A stretch of 64,000 nt of DNA, from positions 32,001-96,000 of the IMG/VR virus record IMGVR_UViG_3300021440_000015; one strand, given 5' to 3'. Position 1 is the stretch's first letter, and every line of letters begins with the position of its first letter. Position numbers and translations under genes: made by a program. This DNA is from a virus. The notes under the pieces were generated by a model, which saw only the letters and a program-made list of their open reading frames with translations, searched no databases and was not told where the DNA came from. Positions 4,697 to 47,717 of this stretch are shown here, piece by piece.

Positions 4697-7600
4697 TTAA
4701 ACACCACTGCCGTCGGGTGTGTTATTGGTGACAATTTCAAAAAACCCACCAGCACCATTTATTTTAACAGACGCTGGATAACTATAAGCAAAATGAGCAA
4801 GAGACCAGCCGTTGAACGGCTGAACAGGATTTATAGCCGATTGCATAATTTCTTTAAAAATTACCCCATTAACATCATTTAAACCGGATTGGGAGACATA
4901 TTCTCTATGATGACCGAACAGAGAATTGTATATTGGGTCTGTGATGGTACTAGGAGCCCCAAATGTACAACCACCAAACAAAGCATAGCTTTCATTATAA
5001 CTTGCGGATACAGCAAATAAAACTGTTCCTGGTTGTAATATAAATTTACCTGTTATTTTAAAATAACTGTAAGGTCCGCCATTTATAAGTCCTATATTTT
5101 CTATACTTGTCACCTGTGTCTGATTAACAATATAAGCGGAATGAGGTCTAGTTTGAAATATGATAGCGCCAGATTCTTCACTTGCGTAAAATCTTCCTAA
5201 TAAAAAATCAGCACTTACAACAGATCTAACTTTGGCATAATAGCTTTGACCGTATTCTAAGCCTAGTAAACCATAAGACTGACCTGCATAGTCTACATAC
5301 GACCCGCCTATTAAAGAAGCTGATGTTTCAGGATTACCGACTTTCCATAGTTTAAGATAAGTCTCACCTGTGAAACCAGACAGATTGCTAAATACAGATG
5401 TTGTTGGCGATATGGCAATATCACCATATGTTGGATCTATAACACCATTTGGTTGAGGTGACGTTACAGCCCCAACAAAAACATATGTTTGATATTGAGA
5501 TACGGTAACCACATTTGACAAACCAGCGGCTCCGCTACTCGATATTAATCTTAATCTCACATACATATCGCTATGTGCTGGAAGATAATGATTTGAAAAA
5601 TTAGTTGTATATGCGTTACCAGTTATTGGACTATCCCAATAATTAAACTGTGAGAAATCAGCAAACGCTGACCATTCCCAAACAGCACTTATTAATTCAC
5701 CAGCAGAGCTGTTGGCTGAGTATACAGTCGATGTAAAGGAAACACCAGGACCTGTACTGTCTGTTGTCGTTATAATTGGACTGTTTACAACAGGTCCTGG
5801 TGTTAAAGATGTGTCAGATATCCAAACTGTTTTACTCGCTACTATAGGTCCGCTTCCAGAACCAGTTCTCCATACAAGTGTTAAAGACTTATCCCCGTCT
5901 GTTGAGTTATCAGCAATTGTCGGTATATTGATTACATTTTGCGCAATAGGTGTTATACTTAACATTCCTATATCTGCGCCAGAAACTGTATAGTCAAAAT
6001 TACGAATAGCTGTTCCAGAGACATCTATGTGATCGCCACTTCCATCATCACGACTTTTAGTCAGGATGAATGTAGCCACCTGACCTTCGTTATAAGTATC
6101 AACACTAGAAGTTATGTTGTAAATAACAACAGGTTGCGCACCTACACTGACAGTACCTGTGGTGGAAGTTTTCACTTCAGTATATCCAGCAGAAGTTAAG
6201 GTATCTGTCTGTTCTACTTTCCAGTAGTAAGTAGTACCGTAAACCAAAGTAGCGTTAATTGTCGTGGAGATTGTGTTTATGTCTATGCCAACACCAGAAA
6301 AATCAGAAGTTGGATAAAGACTAAATCTGTAAGAGGTGCCGACACCGACGACGGTATTACTACCTCTATTCCAGCTAAATGTACCTGTTGCTTCTGCTAC
6401 AGTAGTTGTGTTTAAAGTAGGGGCTGTTAGATATGATCTAGAAGTAGAAGTCAGTACGTTAGAGTATCCACTATAAAAACCATTAGCAGATTTGTAACGC
6501 ATTCTGAAATACAGAACTGTGCTAGGTGGTAAATAGATACCAGTTAAGGAAGGGTTACCTGTACCGTTATAGCTGTCTTCTTGATCGTAGACAACACCAG
6601 ATGTGAAATCAGAAGTGCTATATACTTGCCAATGCATTTTACTGACAGGGCCAGCAGAATCGTTAGCTACATAGTAACTAGACAAAGCATTCAGATAAGG
6701 ATCAGCCCCGCTCACAAATGTGATTGTAGGGGTATCCACTAAAACACCTAAGGTGTTAAAGCTAACTGGAGCGCTAAAAGCAGTGCTTCTACCTTGATCA
6801 GATTTATACGAAACCCTTGCGTAATAAGTAGTAGCTGTATTCAGACCTAATACTGTATAAGTAGTCAGGTGAGTTGTACTATTGGTTACAGACTTGGTAC
6901 TCACTATGGTGGCGAAGCTGCTGTCTGTAGAAATCTGCCATGTGGAAGATGCATGAGTCTCACCCACATCACTGTGAAATGCATCTGCTGTCAATATCAC
7001 ATCGATATCCTGCTGACCCACAGGAGCTGTGATAGTAGGAGTATTTGGATTAGGGATAGCTCCAGACATAAAACTTATAACATCACTCCAATCACTAGGA
7101 GTAGTACCGATGTTAGAAGTATGTCTCATCCGAAGATAATAAGTACTTGCATAGTCTATGTTGTTCCAAATAGCATTTAACCCAGTCTCAGAAGAGCTGT
7201 TAATCAAAGGACTGAATGTATTAGACTTAGACAGTTGCCATTCCACATCTGCTAGTGAACTACCACTACTTCCAGTTAAGCTATAGGTTGAGGAAGTTGC
7301 TGTCAGATTAGGACCTAAACCTTCTTGAGCGTTCAGAGGAGATGTGATAGAAGGTTTGTTAGGTTTGTATACTGTTTTCGTAGTAAACATCACCACAGCA
7401 GACCATCCGCTCACAGACAGCATTTCGCCACGATGTCTAGCTCTTATGTAGTAAGTCTTGACAGCTTGTAAACTCGGTATTGTAAAAGATGTTTTACCTG
7501 CGATCTGATTACTGTAAGTCACAAATCCAGTTTCAAACAAAGGATCTTCAGCTATGTGGTAATCTGTACTCAGATGGTTATCTGTGCCGCCTGTGGTTTG

Positions 7601-30960: not shown

Positions 30961-33111
30961 TTAAACGCGTGTTGCGTCTGTGGCTCCGCTTAAAATAGAT
31001 GAGTTACCAACTATACCTTCTAATATATTACCGACTAATGTCCATGACAGTGAACCAGATGTGGTTGTGTCATGTATTATAGAAGCCCATTCTGCTGAAG
31101 AAGTTAATCTATTAAGTCTGAGCATTTCTTTAGCCATTCTTAATTTAGCCTTAGGGAAGGAAAAGAACTGGCTGTAAAGATCTTGACCAGCGAGAACTGC
31201 TAAATAGTCATGCAGGATATTATCTTCATCTAAAGTCATCTCAACTGTACTTCCAAAAATACCTGATGCGGTTAAAGGCATATGCATAATAGAAGACAGA
31301 TCAACAACTGTAAAGCTTACATCAAGGGCCAGTGCAGTACCTTTTGTATTGAAAGGTAGATTAGACGTGCCTCTTGTTATAGTGAGGGATTCTATCATAC
31401 CTAGTTTAATTTGACATCTACCCCTGTCGTACAGCTGACAGATCATAGGGCTACCATAAGCTGCCCTGCCTACTGACATAGGTAATGTACCAGCTAATAG
31501 CATACACAAAGGTATGTATATGTTCTGCATTTGAGACATCACGTTTCCATAAGGACTTATGAGTTTTATTTTATAACTTCCTGATGGTAAACGAGCATTT
31601 GAATTTTGCCAGTGTTTGGGTATGTCTATATAACCAGCACTAGCCAGACCCATTAAGAAATTAGAAACACCGAAAGTCACGCTGCTGAGTCCGCCAGATA
31701 CCATATCGCCTATGGCTCCTGTTACACTCTTAGCCATATCAGTTATAGTAGAGCTTAACAGATTACCATCTGCCAACGAAAAACGTATGTCCCTTATACT
31801 AGATGCTGTGCCGTTTAGCGTAGAGGATATTTGAGATTCCACACTAACGTTAGAAAAAGATTCTGTGACACTCCCAGTATTATCTACTTTAAAGATAGCA
31901 AATTGGCTACCTTGTCTAAACTCAGCATTAAAATATTCAGCAAAACCAGCTGGTGGTTCTTTAACTTGACTATTTTCTTTGGATGATGAATCTATTCTAG
32001 GGTCTAATTCAGTTTGACTAGCCTTACCATCCGGTGTTTCACTTTTGGTTTTATAGTAATCGGAACCAAGCATGAACTTACTGTTAAGCCAATTCCCAAG
32101 ATTACTGAATATATCATTCTCTCCTGGGTTAATATCAGTCAAAAGAACATCACTTCTTTTTTTCAAAAAGCCTTTATAAGCTGTAAGAGTGTCTTGTTTA
32201 TTGGCTTCGTATTCAGCCATAAATACTCTATTAGCTGTTCTTTGGGCTTTTGAAGCTATAGCGAAAACGTCTATGTAGTTAGCGTCATCTTCAGAAACAC
32301 CAGTAAATAGATCAGGCATCAGACCTCTGATTTCTTTAAGATATTCTTTATCTAATTCAAAAGGCTGACCACCAGCTTTTTGTGCAGTTTCATCTCTAAG
32401 AACTTTAGGCATCAATCCTCTGTTAATAGCTAAAGTATTGACAAGCACATTAACAGCTGACCAGTACATATTCATAGTTGGTTTCAATGAATAGAACTTT
32501 GTTGTAGGTCTGCCAAATATGGCAGTGGTCACATTACCTAAGAACACACCTAAAGCTATTAACGGAAATGCTCTGGCACCAATAAAGGTACCGGCAGCCT
32601 CACCTAGTTTATAAAAAAAGCTAATACCTCTGCCTGTTTTAGCTAAAGTAGCCATATTGCTATCATAGGCTCTTGTTAAAAAGTTTAAGAGCCCATTAAA
32701 CTGCGGAACACCAAATCTTAAAAAGATAGTTTGACTAGGGTCATCAATAGCTTCTGAATAGTATCTACCCATACCACTATTTCTTACTGACCCCACTGTG
32801 GGTTCAGTAAATACACTTTTATTTTTTCCTTGTCTTATATCAGCATATGGTGTAAAACCAGGTCTTGCATTCATCCCTATGTTGTTTCCAAGCTTAGTGC
32901 TTGTGAATTTTAAAGACGCTGAGGTGAAGTATCTGTTATAGATATCAGCCGCATCATCTATTTCAGAATCTGAAACTAAAAATGCCTGTTTGACCCAAGC
33001 TGCATCTCTTTGCAATCCTGAAGAATCACTTACTACCTTCTTAATAGGAAATATAGAACCACCATCTGGTGTTTCTACTATACCTGTATCTATAGTGATG
33101 TTGTTTGCCAT
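30961..33111 (-). CDS. tail/baseplate structural protein (phiKZ gp182-like)
   Basis: 716 aa directly downstream of the lytic tail protein; MGRYYSEAIDD, RFGVPQFN, SPYGN, GMIESLTITRG motifs. Confidence 0.7.
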   Translation of the reverse strand: MANNITIDTGIVETPDGGSIFPIKKVVSDSSGLQRDAAWVKQAFLVSDSEIDDAADIYNRYFTSASLKFTSTKLGNNIGMNARPGFTPYADIRQGKNKSVFTEPTVGSVRNSGMGRYYSEAIDDPSQTIFLRFGVPQFNGLLNFLTRAYDSNMATLAKTGRGISFFYKLGEAAGTFIGARAFPLIALGVFLGNVTTAIFGRPTTKFYSLKPTMNMYWSAVNVLVNTLAINRGLMPKVLRDETAQKAGGQPFELDKEYLKEIRGLMPDLFTGVSEDDANYIDVFAIASKAQRTANRVFMAEYEANKQDTLTAYKGFLKKRSDVLLTDINPGENDIFSNLGNWLNSKFMLGSDYYKTKSETPDGKASQTELDPRIDSSSKENSQVKEPPAGFAEYFNAEFRQGSQFAIFKVDNTGSVTESFSNVSVESQISSTLNGTASSIRDIRFSLADGNLLSSTITDMAKSVTGAIGDMVSGGLSSVTFGVSNFLMGLASAGYIDIPKHWQNSNARLPSGSYKIKLISPYGNVMSQMQNIYIPLCMLLAGTLPMSVGRAAYGSPMICQLYDRGRCQIKLGMIESLTITRGTSNLPFNTKGTALALDVSFTVVDLSSIMHMPLTASGIFGSTVEMTLDEDNILHDYLAVLAGQDLYSQFFSFPKAKLRMAKEMLRLNRLTSSAEWASIIHDTTTSGSLSWTLVGNILEGIVGNSSILSGATDATRV

Positions 33112-33166: not shown

Positions 33167-36100
33167 TTAAACGGTTCTTCTTCTCAGGTCCAATGCCGGA
33201 TTTGGTAAAGTATCTTTCTTTTGAGCATCTGGCATCTTAGGAGAAGGTGCTGTTTGCTCAGAAGTAGGTTTCTCACTTGCTTGAGATTTACCAGCTATAA
33301 GGCTATGTATTTTACTCAAGACATCCAGCATTTGTTTTTGGACATTCAAAGAATCCCCAAGATTAGTATTCACAGTATTAAGATCCGTGTTATTATTTTT
33401 AACACTATCAGGAGCTGTTTTGACAACACCTTGTAGATCTGGGGCCTGTTGATAAGAACTAAAAGATTTCTTCTGAGGCACATCTTGATAAGATGTATTC
33501 TGAATACCTTCTTTAGGTTTATTATTCTCAGTTGGGTTTATAGTAGCTGTAGTCGACACTGCTGTATTTGTAGATGTCGGACTATCATCTGTTTTAGATT
33601 TCAACTGACCAAGTGCTTTACCACCGGCTTTATTTACTTTCTTTTTAAATAGCTCGTAGATTTCCGCCAGAGTCCTCGGACGTCTTCCGTCATAGAAGAT
33701 TTCTTTATTAGAACCAGCAGCCGCTGGAAATAACTGAGATCCAGGTACGTTAGGATGTGATGATAGAAATTTACTAGCACCAGCTGGTCCTAAGAAATGA
33801 GCCAGATATAAATCTAAATCATCGGGATTAGGTTTAACTTTAGATAGTGTTTCTATATTACTTTTAACATACTCACCTGCCATTAAACTGGCTGGTATGG
33901 GATCTGTAGGACTTGCATCCGTGGATACGTTATGTTTTCTGCCATATTTTCTTAATTGTTCCAACCACGTAGCTTTGGTGAATTGGAATAAACCTAAAGC
34001 AGAAGAGTTAGGATTCTTTGCGTTTGGATTCATGTTAGATTCCAGAACAGCAAAAGTCTTAAGTAAATTAGCATCAACACCTGTTGAAGAAGCAGCCTTT
34101 TGTATAGCTGTTTGAACATCAGAGTTTTTATTATCTGTGCTATTACCAGTAGAAGGTTTATTAGAGCCATCCTCACTACCAGTTACATTACCCATAGCGT
34201 CATAAGAAGCTGCGGGTGTTTGTTTGAGAACAGTAGCTGGCGGAGCCTTAGCTGCTTTAATAGAAGATTCGTTAGCCACACCTGTAAAATTACCTAAAGC
34301 GTCGTAAGACTCAGAATTATTAAAATAATTTTCCTGAGGTTTTTCTTCTTTAGGTTTAGGTGTCATAGCTTTACCGGCTATATTGACATCATCTTCTTTT
34401 AATTGATTATTGATGGTCCCATTAGCTGTAGATTCTAGCAAAGCTTTAGCCATATCATAGTTCCTACCAGATAGACCACCCTGCATAATAGTGCCATATC
34501 CACCACCACCGCGACCTATGCCATAATTTATAAGTTCAGATGCTTTACCAGGATCTGCTTTAGAATCTTTTAATGATAATTGAATACCAGCTGGTTCAAA
34601 ATGCCATGGTTCTGAACCAACAGGTCTTGTGAACCCGTATTTTTTCATCAGACCCATTTTATCAAGTTCGTTAAGTATAGTTCTATCAGCATCAAGTGCT
34701 AGACCGAATTCATGTAATGATTTTCCTGGTGGTGCTGACGTGCCAGGAGATCTTCTGTGTATCTCAGCTTGTTTCTGATAAGATCTAAATGCATCATTTA
34801 GAGAAACTTTCTTACCAGTTAGCTCACCATATTCCTGAGCCATAGCTAATAAATTCTTTTTAACGTCAGGGTGTAGGTTTTCTATATCCACCTCATCTTT
34901 TAAACTGATGAATTGCATTCCGGTACTACCATCACGCATGGGTCCATTAGCTAAGCCTGGTGTTTTAAAACCAGATAATGGAGTGTCGGTTTTACCTGTG
35001 TTGGTTTTATCCGATATTTTACCATCTTCACTGTCGGTGCTCACAGAAGCAGTTTTCTTATTGATTTTAGATGGTTTTATAAGATCTTCCTCAGGCTTAG
35101 TTATAAGCACTGGGGTTTTCTTCTTTTCAGCCTGTACTTCGTTTTCAGTTTTAACAGGTTCTGTTTTAACTAAATTAGAAACCTTAGCCAATAGGTTTCT
35201 AATCTCTATTTTAATAAGTTCTCGATTATCTGAAAGTTCTGCAACATCTTTAACAGGACTCACTTTTAAATCATGAGGTCCGTCGTCGAAAGATGTCAAT
35301 TCAAGATATCTTTTTAACTCAGTTGGCTTAAGTGTGTCTACCTTAGATAAAGATATCTTAGGATTGATTTTAGATAAAACTCTTAAATGGTTTATAAAAA
35401 AGAATTTGAATCTATCACTAAACCAAGCTTTTAACTTTTGGGTCTGTTCTTTATCTTCTTCATTAACACCAAAGATACCGGCTATATCTACCCATTTAAG
35501 ATTGTTTGATATTTTAGGCTCGTCGCCAGATAAAGACACATTATCATCTAACATCAGAGCTTCAAGCTCCATTAGTTTATGATGATGCTGGGAATGTTCG
35601 GGACGATTACTAAAGCCGTATTGATAAGCTCTATAAAGCTCGTATTTATTAAGATTGTTTTTGGTAAGGCTTTTATAGCCTTTGTAAAGGCCGTATCCAG
35701 CACCAGCTATGACCATAGCGGCTATACCAGGCGGTGATAATAACGCACCTAATGCAGCAGTACCTACAGCAGCAACAGCTCCCACAGCACCACCTAGGGT
35801 ACCGGCTGTCAAGGCTGTCAAAGCAGCTGGTAAAGCTCTTGCTATAGTAGGTAAGTTACTGACAACGGCTTTACCGACGCCAAATATACCATTACCGACA
35901 AATTTACTTACAGAAGCAAGTCCTCTAAATACGGTACCCACACCACTTATTAAACCGCCGATACCGGTTATCAGTCCTGATAATTTTCCAAGCAGATCAT
36001 TTAAAAGACCGCCTTCTCTATATTTAACAGTCATATCAGGTTTATGTTCCTGATTTGGTTCCTTATTCTGGCTGGGATCTTTATTAGATTTAAGTTTATT

Positions 36101-39100
36101 TAATCTATCTATCCAGGATCCGTCGCGTCTACCGCTTCCATCCTTATCATTGAATAGCTTTGTCTGCTGCCTGTCCTCTATTCGCTTAAGGCGCTCTTCG
36201 CGTGTTCCTTTTTCTGCCTTAACAGGTATTTTCTCACGTTTTGTTGCTACCGTTTGTGATTTTATACTAGATGAAGGTAATTTACCAGCAACACTTTTAA
36301 AAATACCTTTCAATAAAGAAGGTTTTTCATTTTTATTGCTTTGTTCTCTTCTAGTCTCTATTCGTTTAAGACGCTCTTCTCTAGTACCCTTTTCTGCCTT
36401 GGTAGGCATCTTTTCTTTTTCTTTGACAGAAGCAGGTTCTGAATTATCAGATACCATACTTGAGATACTACCTGAGATTTTATCTTTATAAACTTTCAAG
36501 TCTGCTGAAGCACCAGACTTATCCATAAGAGTTTTAAATTTATTATCTAATCCGGTTAACTTTACTATAGCAGCTAAACCATTTCTTCCTATGGCTTTTA
36601 TCAAAGTGCCTCTTGGATCGACAAGACCTTTAGCGATATCACTGCTCTGTAGGACAATATTACCTCTCTTGTCTATTACGTCGCCTTTTATATCTTCATA
36701 TTTAGATATAGGTTTACCAGAGGCTTTGTCAAAATAATAACCAGCGTCGGTTTTATGTTTTGTCATTCTAGGTAAAAATTCACCCTTTATATACAAATCA
36801 GTACCTATTACTGTATTTTTAGTTTCTCTATATATACCTTTAACATAAGCAACTGCTAATTTCTTAGTTATGTCAAAAGCTGCTTTACCAACATAACTGG
36901 TTACTTTAGCAGCGCCGCCTGCTAGTAACCCTAAGTTTTGCATACTTGAGTTTATGTTGTCTTTATTATCGGTTATATATTTAGTTACCTTCTGAGAAGT
37001 AACAGGCGCTTTCTTAACAAAAGCTTCTGTGAGCTTTCTACCTACTCTGCCAGAACCAACAGACATACTTTTCAATATATCTTTAATGGTGAGTGTTGAT
37101 TTGGATAATTCTTTAACGAAAGGTTTAGTTGGTTTTATTTCCTCAGACTGTACTAAGGATAGCTTAGCCATATCGTCTATTTTACCAGACATCGCCTCTG
37201 TCAAAGAAAGTGTGTTTTTTATATCCAGAGCGGTTTGTACTTCTGGATTTATTTTATTTTTCGATAACTGAGCAGAATCCGCACCAGCTTTAACTTTAGA
37301 AACATTTGTGATTTTATCGTCTAGCTGCTTAATAGCCGACATAGTTATGCCGTTTAAAGAAACCAAATCGATCTTTTTACCACCAGGCGCTACAGAGTCG
37401 CCAAGGTTACGTTTCACATCTTGAGCCATAGGACCGATTTTATAATCTGTGTCTTTTAAACCTGATGTTGTTTTATATTTCCAAGAAAAGTCTGGGATAT
37501 TCTTAATAGCAGTTAGAGCTTTAGACGAATCAAAAGGTTTTCTGTCTGTCTTGACATTAACATCAGAGACAGCCTCATCACTTTCAAATTCCATCTTAGT
37601 TAGGAACTTTTTATAGTTTTTAACATTAAGTTTATATTTACCATCTGATTCAAGAGTCACCAATCCTTGTTTAATCAGTTCCTTGTCTTGCCCAGCTGAT
37701 AATAGCTTGTTTATATCTGTTTGGACGTTCGGTGAATACTTTCTCATGGTAGCTATAGTTTCCATGAACTCATTTTTATTACCGATTGCGTCTCTATCTA
37801 TATCAGGATTATATTTTTGTGAGAATTTATCTTTGAACCTGGTTTGCTGCTCTGGACTAAGTTCCTTAAAACTTTCGGATCTCAGCAAAGCATCAGGACT
37901 GCTGTCACCTCTATGTTCTTTAGAGAAAGAGCTAAGTAACTTTTTAAAGGACTTTTCATCCTCACCAGTCAGCTGACCTTCAAATAACTTCTCTGTGAAG
38001 TCTTTAGCTGTTTTCTGATTGCCGTAACTAGTATCTTTTATTTTTTTCTTTAAACTAGCTAGAATGTCTTTAGACAAAGCGGTCTCAGTTTTAAATTCCC
38101 CAGTTAGTTTATCGAAAACTGTTAAAGAGGTTTTATCACCGAGTCTGGTAGTTTGCAATTCTCTATAGATCCTAGCTAAATATCCAGGTATTATTTCAGT
38201 TACGCTGATATTTAGATTATTATCTGTTTGCTTGTCTATAGTGGCTATATCACCAGCATAAGCTTTTTTAACATTTATTTTACTCTGTGCATCTGAAGGT
38301 GATAGTAATCCTAAAACATCATCAGCCACTGAGTAAGCCATCCCTTTAACTAAATTGTCGCTATATAAGCCATCTTCCATGGCCTCTGAATTTCTTATTT
38401 TGCCGACATACTCGAAAGGATTAGCTATGACACCGGCTAATTTTTTACCAGTTTCGTCTAGCTTAGGGAACTTCTTATTAAGATAAGTACTCATCTTACC
38501 ATATGGAAGTTTTTCCTTACCGTAGTCCATCATCATACTGGTGACAGCACCACCTGCTAACTTAAATGGCGATGATTGTCCAGCCATAGTTTCTTTAGCA
38601 TTGTAGACTTCTTCCGTCATAAAGGAAGCTTGCTCAACACCTTCTTTGAATTCATCTATTTTCTCTTTAGTATAAGAAGATATCTTTTCAAGCGTTTCAT
38701 CTAGCCAATCATTATCACCAAAGAGTCGTGTATTGATTCTATTGGCTAATCTTCTTTGCATCTCTTCTTTCATTATTTCACTTTTTTGAATTTTAGTGAA
38801 TTCTGGAAGAGCTGTATTTATAATGATGCCTTTAAATTGCTCAGATGATGTTTCTTGATATCTCTTTGTCGTAAAAAGTAATTCTTTTTGAACAAAAAAG
38901 GATCTTAATTGTAACTCAAGACTTTTCTTTTGATAGGCTTGAGTTATAGTGTCATTATAACTTGTTAATCTAGCTATATTGTCACTCATTGACGACAATA
39001 CGCCAAACTCTGATTCAAATCTTTTCTTAGTTAAATTTTCTTTAACAAGATCTTCGGCGTTGTCTCTTGCTCTTAACTTTAGATCAAGCTCTTGATTAAC

Positions 39101-39586
39101 TTTAAAAGTATCAGCTATTGTACTTTGAATAGAGCTTTCAAGAGCAGCTTCAGGGTTGTAACCGCTAGTTACATATTCTTCACCACCTGTAGCGTCTAGT
39201 AACTTATCGACTATTTTTCTTAAGAAGCCTTCTTCTTTAGGTACAAGCTTATCTATCTTTCTAGCTAGACCGTTTGCCTGAGGTTTTATTTCCTGGATAG
39301 ATTGATCATATAGCTTAGATATACCAGTAGTAATTTTTTCACCGGCGTTAAAGATCGTGGTATATTCCTTAGGTAGTGTTCTCTCAGCTATGTCTTTTAT
39401 AAAATTCACATCCTGAAGAGTATCACTTGCCTGAGAGATGACACCTTTGAAAACCTCAGATACGGGCTTTCTTTCTTTAGGGTTAGTAGCTTCTAAATCG
39501 TCAGGGAAATCAAAGTCACCAAAATCAAGTTCGTCATCAAGATCGAACTCATCTCTTTTTAATTTTTTCTTAACATCCTTAGCCAT
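33167..39586 (-). CDS. tape-measure-like lytic tail protein (phiKZ gp181-like) with M15 peptidase and lytic transglycosylase domains
   Basis: 2139 aa; central hydrophobic Gly/Ala region; M15 motifs RSYQKQ, SLHEFGLALD, EPWHFE; SLT motifs ESNMNPNA, GLFQF, YLAHFLG; divergent from vRNAP beta'. Confidence 0.85.
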   Translation of the reverse strand: MAKDVKKKLKRDEFDLDDELDFGDFDFPDDLEATNPKERKPVSEVFKGVISQASDTLQDVNFIKDIAERTLPKEYTTIFNAGEKITTGISKLYDQSIQEIKPQANGLARKIDKLVPKEEGFLRKIVDKLLDATGGEEYVTSGYNPEAALESSIQSTIADTFKVNQELDLKLRARDNAEDLVKENLTKKRFESEFGVLSSMSDNIARLTSYNDTITQAYQKKSLELQLRSFFVQKELLFTTKRYQETSSEQFKGIIINTALPEFTKIQKSEIMKEEMQRRLANRINTRLFGDNDWLDETLEKISSYTKEKIDEFKEGVEQASFMTEEVYNAKETMAGQSSPFKLAGGAVTSMMMDYGKEKLPYGKMSTYLNKKFPKLDETGKKLAGVIANPFEYVGKIRNSEAMEDGLYSDNLVKGMAYSVADDVLGLLSPSDAQSKINVKKAYAGDIATIDKQTDNNLNISVTEIIPGYLARIYRELQTTRLGDKTSLTVFDKLTGEFKTETALSKDILASLKKKIKDTSYGNQKTAKDFTEKLFEGQLTGEDEKSFKKLLSSFSKEHRGDSSPDALLRSESFKELSPEQQTRFKDKFSQKYNPDIDRDAIGNKNEFMETIATMRKYSPNVQTDINKLLSAGQDKELIKQGLVTLESDGKYKLNVKNYKKFLTKMEFESDEAVSDVNVKTDRKPFDSSKALTAIKNIPDFSWKYKTTSGLKDTDYKIGPMAQDVKRNLGDSVAPGGKKIDLVSLNGITMSAIKQLDDKITNVSKVKAGADSAQLSKNKINPEVQTALDIKNTLSLTEAMSGKIDDMAKLSLVQSEEIKPTKPFVKELSKSTLTIKDILKSMSVGSGRVGRKLTEAFVKKAPVTSQKVTKYITDNKDNINSSMQNLGLLAGGAAKVTSYVGKAAFDITKKLAVAYVKGIYRETKNTVIGTDLYIKGEFLPRMTKHKTDAGYYFDKASGKPISKYEDIKGDVIDKRGNIVLQSSDIAKGLVDPRGTLIKAIGRNGLAAIVKLTGLDNKFKTLMDKSGASADLKVYKDKISGSISSMVSDNSEPASVKEKEKMPTKAEKGTREERLKRIETRREQSNKNEKPSLLKGIFKSVAGKLPSSSIKSQTVATKREKIPVKAEKGTREERLKRIEDRQQTKLFNDKDGSGRRDGSWIDRLNKLKSNKDPSQNKEPNQEHKPDMTVKYREGGLLNDLLGKLSGLITGIGGLISGVGTVFRGLASVSKFVGNGIFGVGKAVVSNLPTIARALPAALTALTAGTLGGAVGAVAAVGTAALGALLSPPGIAAMVIAGAGYGLYKGYKSLTKNNLNKYELYRAYQYGFSNRPEHSQHHHKLMELEALMLDDNVSLSGDEPKISNNLKWVDIAGIFGVNEEDKEQTQKLKAWFSDRFKFFFINHLRVLSKINPKISLSKVDTLKPTELKRYLELTSFDDGPHDLKVSPVKDVAELSDNRELIKIEIRNLLAKVSNLVKTEPVKTENEVQAEKKKTPVLITKPEEDLIKPSKINKKTASVSTDSEDGKISDKTNTGKTDTPLSGFKTPGLANGPMRDGSTGMQFISLKDEVDIENLHPDVKKNLLAMAQEYGELTGKKVSLNDAFRSYQKQAEIHRRSPGTSAPPGKSLHEFGLALDADRTILNELDKMGLMKKYGFTRPVGSEPWHFEPAGIQLSLKDSKADPGKASELINYGIGRGGGGYGTIMQGGLSGRNYDMAKALLESTANGTINNQLKEDDVNIAGKAMTPKPKEEKPQENYFNNSESYDALGNFTGVANESSIKAAKAPPATVLKQTPAASYDAMGNVTGSEDGSNKPSTGNSTDNKNSDVQTAIQKAASSTGVDANLLKTFAVLESNMNPNAKNPNSSALGLFQFTKATWLEQLRKYGRKHNVSTDASPTDPIPASLMAGEYVKSNIETLSKVKPNPDDLDLYLAHFLGPAGASKFLSSHPNVPGSQLFPAAAGSNKEIFYDGRRPRTLAEIYELFKKKVNKAGGKALGQLKSKTDDSPTSTNTAVSTTATINPTENNKPKEGIQNTSYQDVPQKKSFSSYQQAPDLQGVVKTAPDSVKNNNTDLNTVNTNLGDSLNVQKQMLDVLSKIHSLIAGKSQASEKPTSEQTAPSPKMPDAQKKDTLPNPALDLRRRTV

Positions 39587-39673
39587 TTTGGGTAATCCTT
39601 TTTAGGCTGATACAAAAGTTTTCATAAGATTCATTTTAGATTTGATAAAATGGAGCTTTTAAAGAGGAAAAAC

Positions 39674-42035
39674 ATGCAAACTGCTATGCTGCCATTTAAC
39701 ATAGACCTGTTAAACCTTTCTGACATAGACATCAGAACCATCAGACCTGTTAAGGTTCTAGACATAACCGATGGGCTGACCAAGAACTTTCATCCGGATG
39801 GTTTATTCAGCACCCAAACCTTTGGTATGGTGGGTGAAGAAAAACGAAATAGGATGTTCTCTTATATTAATCTGAATATAAAAGTGCTACACCCTATCAT
39901 CTTTAAATCTTTATACGATCTAAAGTCTCTTTATGGAGATATCATGTCGTCTAAAGCATACGCTATATTTGACCCAGAGTTGAAAGATTTTGTAAAATCT
40001 GATCAGATAGATGGTCAAACTGGTTTCGATTTCTTCATCAAACATCTACCAGAGCTTAAATTTGAACAAAACAGTTCTGTAAGAAGACAGTTTAATATCA
40101 AGCTAGTGGATAAGTACAGACAAAAAGCTCTTATAGATAAGTTTGTCGTAATGCCTGCTGGTTTAAGAGATTACGTTTTAGACGAGAATAATCAACCTAG
40201 TGAGGATGAAATAAATACACTTTACAGAAGAGTATTATCTTTATCTAGTATTATAGGTACCGTAAACTCACAGCTAAATGCTGAATACTTCAACAACATG
40301 CGGTTTCAGCTACAGCTTGCCTGTAATGAGATTTTTGAATACATAAAAAATCTTCTTGAGGGTAAAAGCAAACTCATACTTGGTAAATGGGCAGGTAGAA
40401 AAACCTTTCACTCCACCAGAAATGTTATTACGTCCTATATCAGCAAGAATACACAGCTATTTGGTCCTAGACATGTATCATCCACGCAAACTGTAGTAGG
40501 CCTGTACCAGTATTTAAGAGCTACTCTGCCTTTATCCATAAAGAATGTGAGGGACGGTTTTATAGGAAGTGTCTTTACAGGGCCGAACTCACCTATGATA
40601 CTGGTGAATAAAAAGACGCTGAAAAAAGTAGTAGTTCCTATCAATCCTAAGGAATATGACAAATGGATGACTAATGAAGGCTTGGAGAAAGTCTTTGCTA
40701 CCTATGGACAAGAGAACCTCAGACACAGTTATGTGGAGATATCTGATCACTACGCAGGTTTAATTTTTAAAGGTAAGGACGGGACTTATAAAATCTTCCA
40801 GGACATAGATGAGTTACCCGAACGTTACAGTAGAGAAGATGTGACACCTCTGACTATAACAGAACTCATTATGTTGAGTGTCTATGGAGATTCATCTGAA
40901 ACACCTTGTTTCACAACAAGATATCCTATTACAGGATATGGTAGCATATATCCCAGTTATGTATATCTTAAAACCACAGTAGAATCTGACACAAGAACCC
41001 TGCTAGATGACAAATGGGAACCTACCGAATTTGCTTGTGCTGAGTTTCCAATATACGGAAATGGGTTTTATAATTCCTTTTCAGTAGCCTCTAAAAATTT
41101 ATCAAGACTTGGTGCTGATAAAAAGGATAAAAAATGAGTTAAACGTATTCTCATTTTGTTATCCAATTGTCCTCTTAAATAGTAATATTTAAAGAGATTT
41201 TTCTTGAATTGCTGGAACATCCTAAAGTTAATCCACCACCGCTAGATGAAAATCAAAGCCAAGGTTTGAAAACGGATTAAATGAAACAATGGGTAATCAG
41301 CAGCTAAGACGCTAAAGTTGACTCTATAGTCAACCATGCGTAAAGTTCAACGACTAACCCTTAAGCAAGGTGTAGGAGATAGTATCTCCGAAGTGGGAAA
41401 CGCCCTACTGTTTATACAGAGGGTGAAGATATAGTCTGCTCCTTTGGGAAAGCCAAAGGCGGGTGTCTTAACACACCGGGTTACTTTATGATAGGTTTGA
41501 AACCGAACGACTGTAACTGGACAATAGGTTCGATAAGTAACATTGTCGCATACAGAAGAAATTCTGTAATGAAAACTTCTTGAATTGCTGGAACTCCCTT
41601 AGAGCCTAATCACCACTGCGAGGCGAAAGCTAAAGCCAAGGTTTGAAAAGATTAGGATTGGGTTATCAGCAGCGAAGCACCGTATAGGTGAACGTTCAAC
41701 GACCATCCCGTAAGGGAGTAGGATCTAGCAGATCCGAAGTGGGAAGCATCTTATCAGATAAAGCTGAAGATGGTGATATGGTCTGTTCCTGTATGAAAGT
41801 ACAGGCGGGTGTCTGAGCACACCGGGTAAAGAGTGTAGGTTTATATAACCGAGCGACTTTACTGGACAATAAGGGTGATACAATGTCCTTAGTTTGCGTT
41901 ATGTCTGAAGAAGCTAAAGCAGAAATCAGAAATAAGATAAACTCTAGAGATTTTTACGTGGGTGTGAACAATAAAATGAACTTTAGTGGTTCTGATGATG
42001 TTCTTGACCTTACCTTAGCTAATATGACGGGCTAA
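39674..42035 (+). CDS. virion RNA polymerase beta' subunit (phiKZ gp180-like), spliced: join(39674..41119,41529..41534,41874..42035), about 537 aa
   Basis: FHPDGLFS, VMPAGLRD, GKWAGRK, TRYP motifs; joining the exons restores catalytic LGADFDGDTMS in frame; alternative start 39650. Confidence 0.9.
41120..41528 (+). ncRNA. group I self-splicing intron 1 in vRNAP beta' (no endonuclease ORF)
   Basis: Exon ends in U; IGS TTGTC (41167-41171) pairs GAT|AA with U.G at the splice site; P GAATTGCTGGAA, Q AATCAGCAG, R GTTCAACGACTA, S AAGATATAGTC; P7.1/P7.2 hairpins; terminal G. Confidence 0.9.
41535..41873 (+). ncRNA. group I self-splicing intron 2 in vRNAP beta' (no endonuclease ORF)
   Basis: IGS TTGTCG (41543-41548) pairs CGAT|AA; P GAATTGCTGGAA, Q TATCAGCAG, R GTTCAACGACCA and S GATATGGTC (compensatory P7 change); terminal G at 41873. 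Confidence 0.9.
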
Positions 42036-42039
42036 AAAC

Positions 42040-45000
42040 ATGCAAAAACTTTTCAATCTTTTCTATAAAGAAGTAGGCACAAGACGGATACAGAATCTTG
42101 CCAGTCCTAAATTAATAGACTTTATAAGCTTCCCAAGAAACTCTGTATATCACCATCACACCAGAGATGATGGAAGAGAGTTAGATGTATCTAAATTGTA
42201 TTTCAAAGGTTATAAAACAAAAATAGCCGTAGACTACATAACTGAATCTATTTTCACAGACGGCGGTGTCAGAAAAGTTAACCTGAATATAAAGAATCTC
42301 ATAAGAGACTTCTTTAATACTAATAAACAATTTCAATACAGACCTGATGCTTTATCCGTAGTTAAAGATTCCGGTACTTTAATAGTAGAAAATTATAACT
42401 ATCTGAATGATAGTTATAAATACATAGAAACATCTCTCACCCCCTACTATAAATTTCTAAATCATTACAGAACCATTCTGTCTAACATGGCTCTCGCCAT
42501 GGATAAAAACGACAGACAACATTTCTTTTTTGTAAACACACCCAGAGAGATACCTGCTTTAAGTTTTATAGTTCAATTTTCATCAAGCAAACCTTCGACA
42601 GGGATGCTTACAATTTTCAATAATGAGGAAAAGTTACTTATTCTAGAAATGTTTAAATGGTTAAATACAGAGAAAGCTTCTGAAAGTATTTTCTCTGTAT
42701 TTAAAAAATCACATCTTTCTAGAATTAACTTTGTTTTCTTCAGCAGAACAAACAAAGCTTCTATATTGAACTTAGGTTATTTACACGGTTGGGTCAAAGG
42801 CAATGACCTTAATACAAATTCAACCGATAAAGTTCAAGTAGAAGACAACGACCTTCAAAAATTATTTCTTAAGTTTCTTTTAAGTATTAATTTTGTCTCT
42901 GATGTTGAAGAGATTACAGAACACCCGACTGATCAAGACAACTTTACCTTAAAAACAAGATCTGATTCTGAACTAGGTGATGACTTTGATGAAAACTTTG
43001 AGATCAGCCCAGAGTTCACAACATTAAAAACCACACCTGTGATAGACCTTTCACCCAGTTCGATAAATACAAGTATCCCATCCTTGGATGAAATACCTGA
43101 CGATTTAGACTCAGATATATCTACAGACGAAACTATTGCCGCCTTACTGAATCAAATTGAACAAGATTTATCTGTCACAGAGAAGAAGCAGAAAATAACT
43201 CTTTCTAAAAAAGGGATTTCTATAGGTTCAGATGGTGATCTAGTTCAAACTAAAGTCACTAAGGAAATGACAGAAGAGCAAATTACTTCTGAAGTTTTTG
43301 GTGATAAAACATATCGGGAAGGGTTGCTGTCAGCTATTGAAGCAGCAGCCGATACTGGACGATTGTCTGCCGCAGAGTATAGAAAATTTCTAACTGCTGT
43401 GAGTGACTTTGAAAATATGCCTGATCCCTATAAAACAGGCAAGGTTATTTCAGAAGTTAACAAGGTAACCGTTAACGATATTGTCATTAACGACTCTGAA
43501 AATGAAATTGTGACATCAGAGATGATGATAGACAAAACCATGGGTGAGTCATCTTTACAAACTTTTGACAGTAAGTACATTAAAAATGTTTTGTCAAAAG
43601 ACATGCTTATGATGGTGTCCAGCATTCAGAAAGCTGGTGTTGTAATAGCCAGTTATGAAATAGAAACTGAAAGAAGCATAGCTGGAACCTATCAAGTACA
43701 TGAGATTCAGTTAAAACCAGTCGATGGTGCAGGTTCTACTCTTAGGTTTAGAGTTCCGGTTCCTGATGAAAATGGTGTTATGAAAGTTGGTGGTAGTCTC
43801 TATAGCTATAGAAAACAGATAGTAGATCTACCTGTCCGTAAGATAGATCCGGTAACAGTTGCTTTATCTAGCTATTACGGTAAGACCTTTGTAGCTGTGT
43901 CTGACAAAAAAGCCAATAGTTCTTATGACTGGTTGTTAAGAAACATATCTAAATTAAGTATTTTGGATAATCCGGTCATTACTGATTTGGGCCCCGCTGA
44001 TGTTTTCAACAATTTATTCAAAGCTCCTTATCTTTATAGTTTCTTATCTAAAAACTATAAAACTTTCAAAATAAAAGGTAATACTTTTGTTTTTGATGAA
44101 AGGGAAAGATCTATAATCTACCCAAATTTCTCAAAGATAGAGAAAAACGGTAGTGTGGTTTGTGGTTTCACAGAGACATCAGAACCTATAGTCATGTCAG
44201 AGACCGAAGAGTTTCTAATCTATAGAGCTGGCGGTTATGTCAGTCTCGGTAACATAGAAACTATGTTAGGCATAGACAAGACTAAGTCACCTGTAGATTT
44301 TACTGAACTAAGGGTCTTTGCTAAAACAGTTCCTGTGGGTGTGGTTCTTGGTTATTATATCGGTTTTGGCAAACTTTTAAAATTGATCAAGGCTGAGTAC
44401 AGAGCTGTAGAAGGTAGATCTCTTAAGAATTTACAAGCAGATGAATATGTTGTAGCATTTTCTGATACTTCTTATATCTTTACAAGAAAACAAAGAGCTG
44501 TAAGTCTCATGGTTTCTGGTTTCCTTGAGTATGAGAAGGTAATAAAACAGTTTCCTGTAGAAACATTTAACGATAAAGATGTTTACTTCAATCTTTTTGA
44601 CAGTAAATCTATGTCTGCTCTGTATATAAGAGAGTTGGACATATATCGTCAGTTGTTCATAGACGGCATAACTAAGACTATCTTAGAACAAATGGGTCTG
44701 CCTGTGACTTTTGAAGGTCTTTTAGTAAAGTCTACTGAAATGCTTTGTGAATATGGTTACCCTGATACCCAGGATATGAATCACATGCGCATCAGAGGTT
44801 ACGAAAGAATACCAGGTATCGTATACAGTCAATTGGCTACTGCTATACGTCAGTACAGAACAAAGAATATCTCAGGCAGATCCAAGATAGAGATGTCGCC
44901 TTTTGCTGTATGGTCTACAATAATGAAAGACCCTGCTATTAAGTTAGTGGAAGATATTAACCCTATCCAGAACATGAAAGAATCTGAGATAGTCACATAC

Positions 45001-47717
45001 GTAGGTGAAGGCGGAAGAGGAAAAGAATCTATGAACAAAGCCACTAGGGCTTTTCATGTTTCTAATGTGGGTGTGGTATCTGAAGCCTCTGTAGATAGTG
45101 GTGACGTAGGTATAAACTTTTATCTTTCATCTAACCCTAATTTTAAGGACATGCGAGGCATAGTTAAATCTGACAAGAAGATAACTCCTACGTCTATGGT
45201 AAGTACAGCCACCATGCTTGCACCAGGTAGTAGTAAAGATGATTAAATATATACAGTGAGGAACTGTATATGATTGAATGTAATACACCTAATTTTAAGA
45301 TTCCAAAAGGTTACTCTAAATACAGAGTCTCGCCAGATGGAAAAGTTTTTTCGTTTCATAAAGAAAAGTTTTTAAAAGGGTCTATAAATCCAGCAGGTTA
45401 CACCAATATTAGATTAACATCCGATAATGGTGTAACATTAACTTGGGGATTGCATAGACTGATAGCGTTTTGTTTTATTTGTAGTGATTATGAAAAGTTT
45501 GGTGAGTTGTATGTAAACCATAAGGACGGTAATAAACACAACAACGCACTTGAAAATCTTGAAATCGTAACACCTAAACAGAACGTTGAACACGCAGGTC
45601 TTAACAACTTAAGTAGAAAGTGTTTACCTATTTTGGTAAGAGATGTTAAAAGTGGTTTGATATCGGAATACCCTAGCATCATTGAATGTTCCAAACATCT
45701 TGGTGTTAGTAAGGATACTGTTTTATACAGATTAAGATATCTAGGTAAGAGATTATCGCCATCTGGTCAACAATTCAAACTGAAGAAAGATAAAACACCT
45801 TGGGTTGAAATAAAAGATTTAGAAGAAGCGAAAAAACTTTACGGTAGGAACAAAAGCGTTGCGGTGAGAACATATCCAGCTATTGAAAGAATCACTATCT
45901 ACAGTAGTTGTAATGAAGTATCGTCAAAATTAGGCTTAAGCGCAGGTTATGTTTCTCAGTTGTTTTACAACAAAGATCAGCCGGTTATAGATAATTTTAT
46001 TCAGCTTAAACCTAATGATAATTCGATACCTTGGGTAACACACACAGATTTCATTGAAAGTTATGAAAATTTCACAGGGTGTAAAGTCATAACTGTTTGG
46101 AACTGTTTGACAGACGAAAGAAAAATATATAAGTCTGTCACAAGTTGCGCTAGTGATAATGGTATTAAAATAACTACCTTACATTGGCGTTTAAACCAAG
46201 AAGCAAAGGTTCACCGTGACGGTAGAAAGTATGTGTATTACAGTCAGTTAAGTCCTTTGGAAAAGAAACTTTTCAAAGAATCTCTTTGAATTGCTGGGAA
46301 CTCTTGTTAGATCACTGAACCACTGCGAGGCGAAAGCCAAAGCCAAGGTTTGAAAATCAGTGAGTAGAGACAATCAGCAGCTAAGACGCTAAAGTTGATT
46401 CTGATCAACCATGCGTAAAGTTCAACGACTAAGGTTTTATCAACCTGTAGGGTACCTAGCGGTATTCGAAGCGGAGAGCACCCTACTGTATACAGAGGGT
46501 GAAGATATAGTCTGTTCCTGTATGAGAATATAGGCGGGTGTCTGAGCACACCGGGTAAAGAGGGTAAGCTGTGAAGCTGAGCGACTTTACTGGACAGTAA
46601 GGGAAAACGCGTCAACTTTGTCCAAATACAGATGTCTCATTTAATCGCGTGTAAAGATTATCATCAACCTATCGTAAGAACAGGTTATGAGTATGTAGTA
46701 CCTAATAGAACATCTGAAATATTTGCCTATAATGCCAAAGACGACGGTGAGGTTATCTCATTGGCTAAAACTGGTTTGATCGTCAAGTATAAAAACGGCG
46801 AGCAAAAAGGCATACAGCTTGGTCGTATTTACGGAAAAGCTGAAGGTAGTGTATACCCACATGACATTGTTTCTAGTGTTAAACTCGGTGATAAGTTTAT
46901 CAAAGGTGATAACATAGCTTATAATACAGGTTTCTTTGAGAAAGATTTACTTGATCCAAAAAGAGTAGTTATGAAAAACTCTATGACGATCAAAGTAGCT
47001 CTGATGGAAACCAACCAGACTCACGAAGATAGTTGCTCTATTTCTAATAGAGTGTCTTTAATGTCTAGTGCCAAAACCACAAAAATGAAATCGGTCACTG
47101 TTTCCTTTAAACAAAACTTGCACAATGTTGCATCTTTTGGACAAAGAATAAAACCGAATGATATTTTGATGGTAATGGAAGATGAAATTACTTCCACAGG
47201 TCATTTTGATGAAGAATCACTTTCACTATTAGCCGACTTATCTAAACAGTCTATTAAGTCTAAATACGACGGGGTTTTAGATAGAATAGAAGTTTACTAT
47301 CACGGTAGTAAAGAAGATATGAGTCCTTCTTTAAGAGCACTTGCTGATAAAAGTGATCAGGTATTAGAAACTATATGTAAATCGACTAACTCGCCTGTAG
47401 TCACGGGTGAAGTTAACGATGAATACAGAGTAGCTGGTTCTCGTCTGAGTTTAGACAAAGCTGAGATAAAACTTTATATAACCATGGATACAATCAGCGG
47501 TACAGGTGATAAACTTGTGTTCGCTAATCAAATGAAGAGTGTGGTGGGTGAGGTAATGGATTATGATGTAAAGACAGAATCCGGTGAGAGAGTAGATGCC
47601 ATATTTGGTTTTCGCTCAATCATGGCTCGTGTAGTGACATCACCTATAATCATAGGTACCACAACCACCTTACTTAAAAAAGTTGCTGAAAAAGCTGTCA
47701 AAGTTTACAAAGGTTAA
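42040..47717 (+). CDS. virion RNA polymerase beta subunit (phiKZ gp178-like), spliced: join(42040..45243,46602..47717), about 1439 aa
   Basis: RpoB-like motifs SEASVDSGDVG, RTGYE, HEDS, GDKLVFANQMKSV; joining gives KDD|GKRVNFVQIQ, equivalent to RpoB HDDANRALMGANMQ. Confidence 0.9.
45244..46601 (+). mobile_element. mobile group I intron 3 carrying an HNH homing endonuclease in the P1 loop
   Basis: Exon ends GAT; IGS ..AAGTC near 46250-46254 followed by P2; P GAATTGCTGGGAA, Q AATCAGCAG, R GTTCAACGACTA, S AAGATATAGTC; terminal G at 46601. Confidence 0.9.
45270..46289 (+). CDS. HNH homing endonuclease (NUMOD4-like N-terminus, HNH, repeated NUMOD1-like HTH modules)
   Basis: IPKGYSKYRVSPDGKV, LHRLIA..F, VNHKDGNKHNNALENLE, three Y.S...C/V....G modules. 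Confidence 0.9.
   Translation: MIECNTPNFKIPKGYSKYRVSPDGKVFSFHKEKFLKGSINPAGYTNIRLTSDNGVTLTWGLHRLIAFCFICSDYEKFGELYVNHKDGNKHNNALENLEIVTPKQNVEHAGLNNLSRKCLPILVRDVKSGLISEYPSIIECSKHLGVSKDTVLYRLRYLGKRLSPSGQQFKLKKDKTPWVEIKDLEEAKKLYGRNKSVAVRTYPAIERITIYSSCNEVSSKLGLSAGYVSQLFYNKDQPVIDNFIQLKPNDNSIPWVTHTDFIESYENFTGCKVITVWNCLTDERKIYKSVTSCASDNGIKITTLHWRLNQEAKVHRDGRKYVYYSQLSPLEKKLFKESL

Follow-up and report, generated by a model that had tools for sequence, protein, structure and literature searches.

The catalytic DFDGD motif of a giant-phage virion RNA polymerase gene is interrupted by two predicted group I introns flanking a six-base micro-exon

How can a gene for an RNA polymerase subunit specify a working enzyme when its reading frame breaks off inside the catalytic motif? 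The question is raised by the IMG/VR virus record IMGVR_UViG_3300021440_000015, of which we analysed a stretch of 64,000 nucleotides (positions 32,001 to 96,000 of the record; hereafter the window, whose numbering is used below unless another record is named). On the + strand of the window, the gene for the beta-prime N-terminal subunit of a virion RNA polymerase (vRNAP) reads ...LSRLGAD, with GCTGAT ending at 41119, after which the open reading frame (ORF; 39650..41137) continues into intervening sequence and stops after KKDKK. The sequence confirms that this catalytic vRNAP gene, from an uncultured freshwater giant phage, is interrupted twice within the metal-binding motif DFDGD. Removal of both introns at the borders given below is, in our view, highly probable.

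Exon 1 (39650..41119) matches phrog_2986, a phage RNA polymerase subunit profile, over positions 1-484 of 539 (E 6.7e-167). It is followed on the same strand by group I intron 1 (41120..41528, 409 nt), between the codons of the first Asp and the Phe of the motif, by the micro-exon TTCGAT (41529..41534), which encodes Phe-Asp, by group I intron 2 (41535..41873, 339 nt), between the second Asp and the Gly, and by exon 3 (41874..42035), which opens with GGT GAT ACA ATG, reads GDTMSLV...ANMTG and stays open until the stop codon at 42033-42035. The three catalytic Asp codons (41117-41119, 41532-41534 and 41877-41879) lie one in each exon. A preliminary description of this locus, made from the letters alone, had proposed the same layout, with two complete group I cores, canonical U and G borders and the catalytic Asp residues distributed over three exons; rereading the sequence returned its intron coordinates to the base, and the codon positions bear out the distribution of the Asp residues. 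Neither intron has the homing-endonuclease gene of a mobile group I intron: no + strand ORF of at least 40 aa lies within intron 1, and a 42-aa sense ORF alone overlaps intron 2. As the introns stand side by side, with six coding bases between them that the protein alignment requires, they do not form a twintron, in which one intron is nested in another.

The protein supports these borders. Exon 3 covers profile positions 487-538 of phrog_2986, and the gap between the two long exons is exactly two positions (485-486), which the Phe-Asp of TTCGAT fills. When the three exons were joined in a script, they gave a 545-residue protein in which DFDGD appeared only after joining, and which aligned without a gap through RLGADFDGDT with two uninterrupted homologues, gp43 of Ralstonia phage FLC4-3B and gp80 of Bacillus phage AgentSmith. 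Shifting the borders of either intron by one base failed to restore the motif. The proposal that splicing would recreate DFDGD is therefore upheld by both the profile gap and the intron-free homologues. By tblastn, 313 records of cultured phages contain homologues, all below 60% identity and the best reaching 46.2%, mainly in phiKZ-like giant phages of Pseudomonas, Erwinia, Vibrio, Ralstonia and others, with several annotated as virion RNA polymerase beta-prime; megablast of the locus against cultured phages gave no match. The gene order (large virion or lytic protein gene, beta-prime N, beta) is the same in the phages U5, EL and Goslar, and homology together with this order suggests that the subunit is packaged in the virion.

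Is the layout a property of this one assembly? Searching IMG/VR with exon 1 retrieved three loci that are related to it at about 80% amino-acid identity. Two of these share one and the same sequence over 9,449 bases. Each of the three carries two tandem matches to the Rfam group I intron model RF00028 and reads GCTGAT, intron, TTCGAT, intron and GGTGAT or GGTGAC, with identical micro-exon bases. The layout persists while the introns themselves differ, since L003, one of these loci, has an intron 1 of 526 nt and an intron 2 of 364 nt (5979-6342). Both introns start after T and finish in G (G41528 and G41873 in the window), and their ends are identical in L003 and in a second relative, L004. Compared with the relatives, exon 3 differs at 23 synonymous and 7 non-synonymous codons in one case and at 26 and 10 in the other, of 53 codons. 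Because the differences are mostly synonymous, exon 3 is apparently translated in the frame given above, which would require exact removal of both introns; the pattern indicates that it is under purifying selection, and its frame is kept in the relatives.

No RNA run figured among the 20 sequencing runs listed. We also consulted Logan contigs from four freshwater or aquatic DNA runs belonging to four studies (contigs are labelled X1 to X3 where they have to be told apart); X1 is possibly the sample from which the window derives. A 392-nt X3 contig, from a study other than that of the window, spans 41303-41694 across the micro-exon with eight differences and no gap, while contigs of X1 and X2 run from exon 1 on into intron 1 and from intron 2 on into exon 3. 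None of the Logan contigs joins 41119 to 41529 or to 41874, and contigs of this kind cannot show absence. Contig joints from 41223 to 41290 (X3) and from 41377 to 41775 (X2) most likely reflect cross-mapping of paralogous introns of other phages, and the same is most likely true of inserted letters at 41481/41851 (X1), which match a third, paralogous intron of the window (intron 3, described below). As a separate observation, over 41110-41850 the X3 contigs of the intron pair have a word depth of 45-216, compared with 0-4 for the flanking exons and 63 for the junction contig; the intron family and the junction contig thus seem to reside in genomes far more abundant in X3 than this phage. When viral contigs were scanned for the junction pattern, all three matches were the related loci already found. 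The same scan of metagenome contigs gave 23 matches, none of them (0 of 23) similar to the introns or exons, and we attribute these to chance, the pattern being a 20-mer with four degenerate positions.

Are the intervening sequences ribozymes? RF00028, whose gathering score is 50 bits, matches at 41139-41458 (78.1 bits, E 3.8e-18) and at 41525-41805 (79.9 bits, E 1.1e-18), each time over the entire model (1-253 of 253), in agreement with the two complete cores first proposed. In intron 1, the predicted P1 has its 5' strand at 41117-41121 and its guide UUGUC at 41167-41171, with an extended hairpin at about 41125-41166, and in the minimum-energy fold of the 5' segment the pairs at the splice site are G-C, A-U, U.G, A-U and A-U. 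In intron 2, the guide UUGUCG (41543-41548) pairs with CGAU|AA, so that four of the six micro-exon bases would lie in P1, as the Rfam P1 alignment also has it; the micro-exon was expected to supply the P1 strand of intron 2, and the fold uses its CGAU. Among six minimum-energy P1 folds (introns 1 and 2 from the window, L004 and L003), five place a U.G wobble at the predicted 5' splice site (U41119 and U41534 in the window), which, with the terminal G at both 3' ends, corresponds to the canonical group I borders. A 4-bp P10 is possible for intron 2 by inspection.

Covariation points the same way. Across eight related introns, 36 of the 78 consensus pairs have changed on both sides with pairing kept, and 95.3% of cells are paired compared with 81.4% in column shuffles, none of which (0 of 500) reached the observed value; controls with slid partners gave 32-44% paired cells and 3-10 compensated pairs. 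P7, the guanosine-binding helix, is itself compensated between introns (U-A in five rows and C-G in three). RNAalifold also drew a helix 10 between GUUCA and the 3' tail UGGAC, without covariation. Each of the three introns of the window comes after a GAT codon and has GUC as its guide core; the P1 fold of intron 3, made with an artificial linker, picked a different GUC, and inspection for a P10 in intron 3 (45244-46601) found nothing convincing. By model score and covariation, both introns in the DFDGD motif are members of group I.

We propose that two separate but related ORF-less group I introns fill homing sites six bases apart, each acting as an independent ribozyme excised by the normal two-step reaction. 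Guanosine would attack after U41119 and U41534, and the freed exon ends would attack after G41528 and G41873; removal of both introns would join GCTGAT-TTCGAT-GGTGAT and give ...LGADFDGDTMS..., the sole frame that yields a catalytically complete subunit. Either order of splicing would lead to the same mRNA, because the micro-exon would fully supply P1 of intron 2 while intron 1 needs no more of exon 1 than its GAU. About 2 nt would separate the two active sites, and the reactions would not be docked together. Splicing is probably sequential, since the six bases are at once the 3' exon of intron 1 and the P1 strand of intron 2, and the order is probably 5' to 3', as intron 1 is transcribed first. 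The introns may be seen as selfish elements sitting where imprecise deletion would kill, and the pair with its micro-exon would have spread recently between diverged phages. A more elaborate version combines four elements: a strict order of the ribozymes, because the same bases cannot be the 3' exon of intron 1 and the docked P1 of intron 2 simultaneously; travel of the pair as one cassette; immunity to both classes of HNH nicking endonuclease; and occasional skipping that gives an in-frame, catalytically dead subunit and so modulates the assembly of the virion polymerase. Taken jointly, we hold these to be doubtful.

Several points weigh against the removal and spread of the introns as proposed. 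Splicing itself is something we infer from the DNA. The guide of intron 1, UUGUC, pairs with GAU|AA and engages three exon bases only; the 5' segment of intron 1 in L003, whose P1 loop is 120 nt longer, formed no P1; and inspection found nothing convincing as a P10 for intron 1. Introns 1 and 2 are nearly alike in their recognition elements (guide core GUC and 3' tail CTGGACAATA(G/A)G), and in engineered tandem introns it was distinct P1, P10 and P9 elements that are reported to have suppressed exon skipping (PMC10136302). For phiKZ, introns with endonucleases were predicted in 2002 in gp56, gp72 and gp179, as cited in PMC10914365, where a long-read transcriptome is reported to have given no evidence of their splicing, including that of gp179, under the conditions of that study; this result is a caveat for the whole class of such introns. 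Lastly, intron mobility is left unexplained when neither intron carries an endonuclease ORF.

How far do these points favour another explanation? Because the recognition elements are near-identical, exon skipping is a plausible side reaction, and it could be more than that: some transcripts might skip the micro-exon as a splicing switch, producing a catalytically dead subunit without Phe-Asp that may titrate or time vRNAP output. The skipped product would be in frame (...LGADGDTMS...), both guides have a GUC that pairs with GAU, the 3' tails hardly differ, and skipping is reported from phage Twort, where two similar IA2 introns enclose a 23-nt exon, and from Coxiella, where the exon has 34 nt (PMC10136302). 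The introns nevertheless differ in P7, P8, P6 and P9, which should keep their cores self-contained, and nothing points to the skipped product being useful rather than waste, leaving a regulatory switch as an unlikely explanation.

It has even less in its favour to suppose that the introns have decayed and no longer splice, with the gene a pseudogene and the enzyme function supplied elsewhere. Such relics could well lack endonuclease ORFs, as both introns do, and the undetected splicing of phiKZ gp179 in one study (PMC10914365) would fit them, but the cores match the full Rfam model with compensated pairs, and exon 3 shows the selection and open frame described above. A source of the function elsewhere is not apparent either: no second copy of the beta-prime subunit occurs in the 120,257-bp record, whose completeness is about 44%, and nowhere in the window is DFDGD encoded contiguously. 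We consider decay very improbable. An assembly artefact, in which one intron was duplicated by mis-assembled repeats, was one of the refutations foreseen in the preliminary description. The introns do belong to a repeated family, and the cross-mapping of Logan paralogue contigs produced the two joints mentioned above and several loose ends. Yet the three introns of the window share a mean column identity of 72%, and with introns so different and the same layout in all three relatives, which are contigs from other samples, duplication finds no support; the X3 contig moreover bridges the micro-exon gaplessly. We give an artefact next to no credence. Removal of both introns by independent group I splicing remains the reading that we prefer.

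The comparison with L004 bears on how the preferred arrangement arose. DNA identity between the window and L004 is 74.3% in exon 1 and 78.0% in exon 3, compared with 95.3% in intron 1 and 97.6% in intron 2, and in 60-base bins it jumps where the introns begin and end, 63-80% giving way to 93-100%. In the comparison with L003, intron 1 has an identity of 93-98% in its 3' half and of 67-80% in its 5' half; as the halves differ in this way, the introns are mosaics. Both intron-free alleles and signs of lateral transfer, the marks of a mobile intron, are thus found at this locus, and the simplest reading suggested by the identities is that the intron pair was recently transferred laterally or gene-converted between diverged phages. 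In a tree of the intron cores, which is unrooted and built from mosaic introns, the window introns group weakly with those of their own phage lineage and not with the cultured ones.

Each of the two sites is also occupied, singly, in cultured giant phages. Using the uninterrupted AgentSmith protein as tblastn query, we took an evenly spread sample of 60 of the 313 records. Most rows (52 of 60) run past residue 490, leaving eight that stop at 487-490; five of these were inspected (U5, Yong XC31, C-ZP2022, EL and CF8), setting aside fMGyn-Pae01, IR-QUMS-PaBa1 and MIZ-Pa99. In Pseudomonas phage U5 (Phikzvirus) and Vibrio phage Yong XC31, ...GAD is followed by about 1.4 kb and then FDGDT..., which is the site of intron 1. 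Vibrio phage C-ZP2022 (...GADFD / GDMLS) and Pseudomonas phage EL (...DSDHD / GDQLS) are interrupted at the site of intron 2. Aeromonas phage CF8 has a third site, with 257 nt between ...GGDFDG and DQLS.... The virion beta-prime gene of Escherichia coli phage Goslar has an HNH-bearing intron at the first site, where its record annotates Intron_gpI. RF00028 scores are 93.4 bits for U5, 69.9 for Yong XC31, 51.1 for EL, 67.7 for Goslar and 40.7, below threshold, for C-ZP2022, and all four long intervening sequences tested (U5, Yong XC31, EL and C-ZP2022) contain an HNH_3 ORF. The CF8 sequence (MK774614.2, L024 3848-4104) is ORF-less and separates the Gly from the third Asp; it is preceded by T and has G as its last base. 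It gave no match in Rfam with E values of up to 1 admitted, and may be a small or atypical intron. It had been predicted that standard gene callers would truncate such genes, and this is what GenBank holds: the coding sequences of U5, Yong XC31, EL, C-ZP2022 and CF8 each list the upstream exon as a separate, truncated entry.

By these alignments, the DFDGD codons are an intron hot spot, the virion enzyme having at least three insertion points (after the first Asp, the second Asp and the Gly). The cultured phages U5, EL, Yong XC31, C-ZP2022 and Goslar share with the window the gene, the two insertion points and the presence of group I introns, but they have one site filled by an intron with an HNH ORF inside, whereas in the window both sites are filled by ORF-less introns with a six-base exon between. 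Goslar offers a second parallel in its other polymerase (MK327938.1, minus strand, about 167.6-170.9 kb), where two interruptions fall within the NADFDGD codons of the non-virion RNA polymerase beta-prime gene, and between them remains a micro-exon of about 13 nt that we read as coding (F)DGDA. The first intervening sequence matches group I at 46.9 bits and contains an HNH ORF; the second (about 340 nt) has no Rfam match. The Goslar gene thus resembles the window in having a catalytic motif interrupted twice with a micro-exon left between, and differs in the polymerase concerned, in the insertion points and in the HNH ORF of its first intron. In the Goslar genome paper (PMC6563267) the word 'intron' occurs 0 times, and we found no published description of the non-virion micro-exon. 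The window case is the tightest double occupancy verified in this analysis.

How new is such an arrangement? The preliminary description knew of no two-codon micro-exon of this kind, and this stands in part: in a literature search of main texts, we found no description of a micro-exon inside a phage polymerase DFDGD motif. The wider claim to novelty was overstated, given the sites singly filled in cultured phages, the 13-nt micro-exon of Goslar and the mitochondrial mini-exons, for which sizes as small as 3 nt and 1 nt are reported (PMC8971849). In essential phage genes, codons of the active site are described as a recognised intron location (PMC12908238). Staphylococcus phage Twort offers a precedent for a short exon, since introns 2 and 3 of its orf142 are likewise closely similar tandem introns around a short exon that can be skipped; there, splicing and skipping are reported to have been seen by RT-PCR for 23 nt (Landthaler and Shub 1999, as described in PMC10136302), whereas the window case is a predicted 6-nt exon in a catalytic motif. 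In mitochondria, exons of under four codons are said to 'occur regularly' and to be overlooked by gene modellers (PMC10352661). Those mini-exons belong to organellar genes, often with protein splicing factors, in contrast to the pair of paralogous introns described here, which sit at neighbouring Asp codons of a bacteriophage gene. The finding is an extreme variant of a known mobile-intron habit and no new mechanism.

The same habit recurs elsewhere in the record, the whole 120,257 bp of which hold five RF00028 matches. Immediately downstream of beta-prime, the vRNAP beta gene is interrupted on the + strand by intron 3 (45244..46601), a paralogous group I intron with 87.6 bits at 46229-46534. 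Exon 1 of beta (42040..45243) ends ...SSKDD and matches phrog_3148 over profile positions 4-1050 of 1424 (E 1.7e-266). Exon 2 (46602..47717; GKRVNFVQIQMSH...) resumes with GKRVNFVQIQ... at 46602 in a frame that is open from there, and an ORF from 46632 matches phrog_3148 positions 1061-1422. Intron 3 follows two conserved Asp codons (...KDD) of the gene. Its ORF (45270-46289), upstream of the ribozyme core, encodes 339 aa with HNH_3, NUMOD4 and NUMOD1 matches. The group I intron in PhiPA3 gp210, which experiments showed to play a part in competition (Birkholz et al. 2024, PMC11620839), is similar to intron 3 in encoding an HNH nicking endonuclease and in following two conserved Asp of the beta subunit; compared with the DFDGD pair, it is a single intron, in a different gene, with no micro-exon (PMC11620839).

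The remaining two matches lie outside the window. At G000:C1:6788-7090 (69.1 bits), a group I intron with no ORF parts ...LLMFQR from SVDTPIGAPYN... in a thymidylate synthase-like gene, beside the conserved QR-S-x-D region. The fifth (G000:C1:10262-10563, minus strand, 85 bits), with an upstream ORF, interrupts a gene reading ...RRVRNFCAT / RGTFVVTPHQLS... at a tentatively placed 5' splice site. Upstream of the beta-prime gene, the minus strand of the window (33167-39586) encodes a 2139-aa protein whose N-terminal part resembles tail fibres and which also contains a Peptidase_S74 chaperone domain in its interior (aa 674-728), a region resembling VanY and an SLT transglycosylase domain; in U5, EL, CF8 and Goslar, too, a large protein of the tail-fibre or lytic kind fills the slot beside the beta-prime gene.

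The locus offers a natural and conserved test case of two ribozymes of the self-splicing type that share nearly the whole exon between them, at six bases well below the 23-nt exon of Twort (PMC10136302). It also matters for annotation: several cultured phages have their catalytic subunit listed as truncated and without an active site, and because of this, gene models and protein family counts are wrong at this locus. The near-identical introns in diverged phages point to an active exchange of ORF-less introns among freshwater phage communities. If the more elaborate version set out above is true, filling both sites would protect the gene from the two classes of HNH nicking endonuclease encoded at these positions in competing giant phages.

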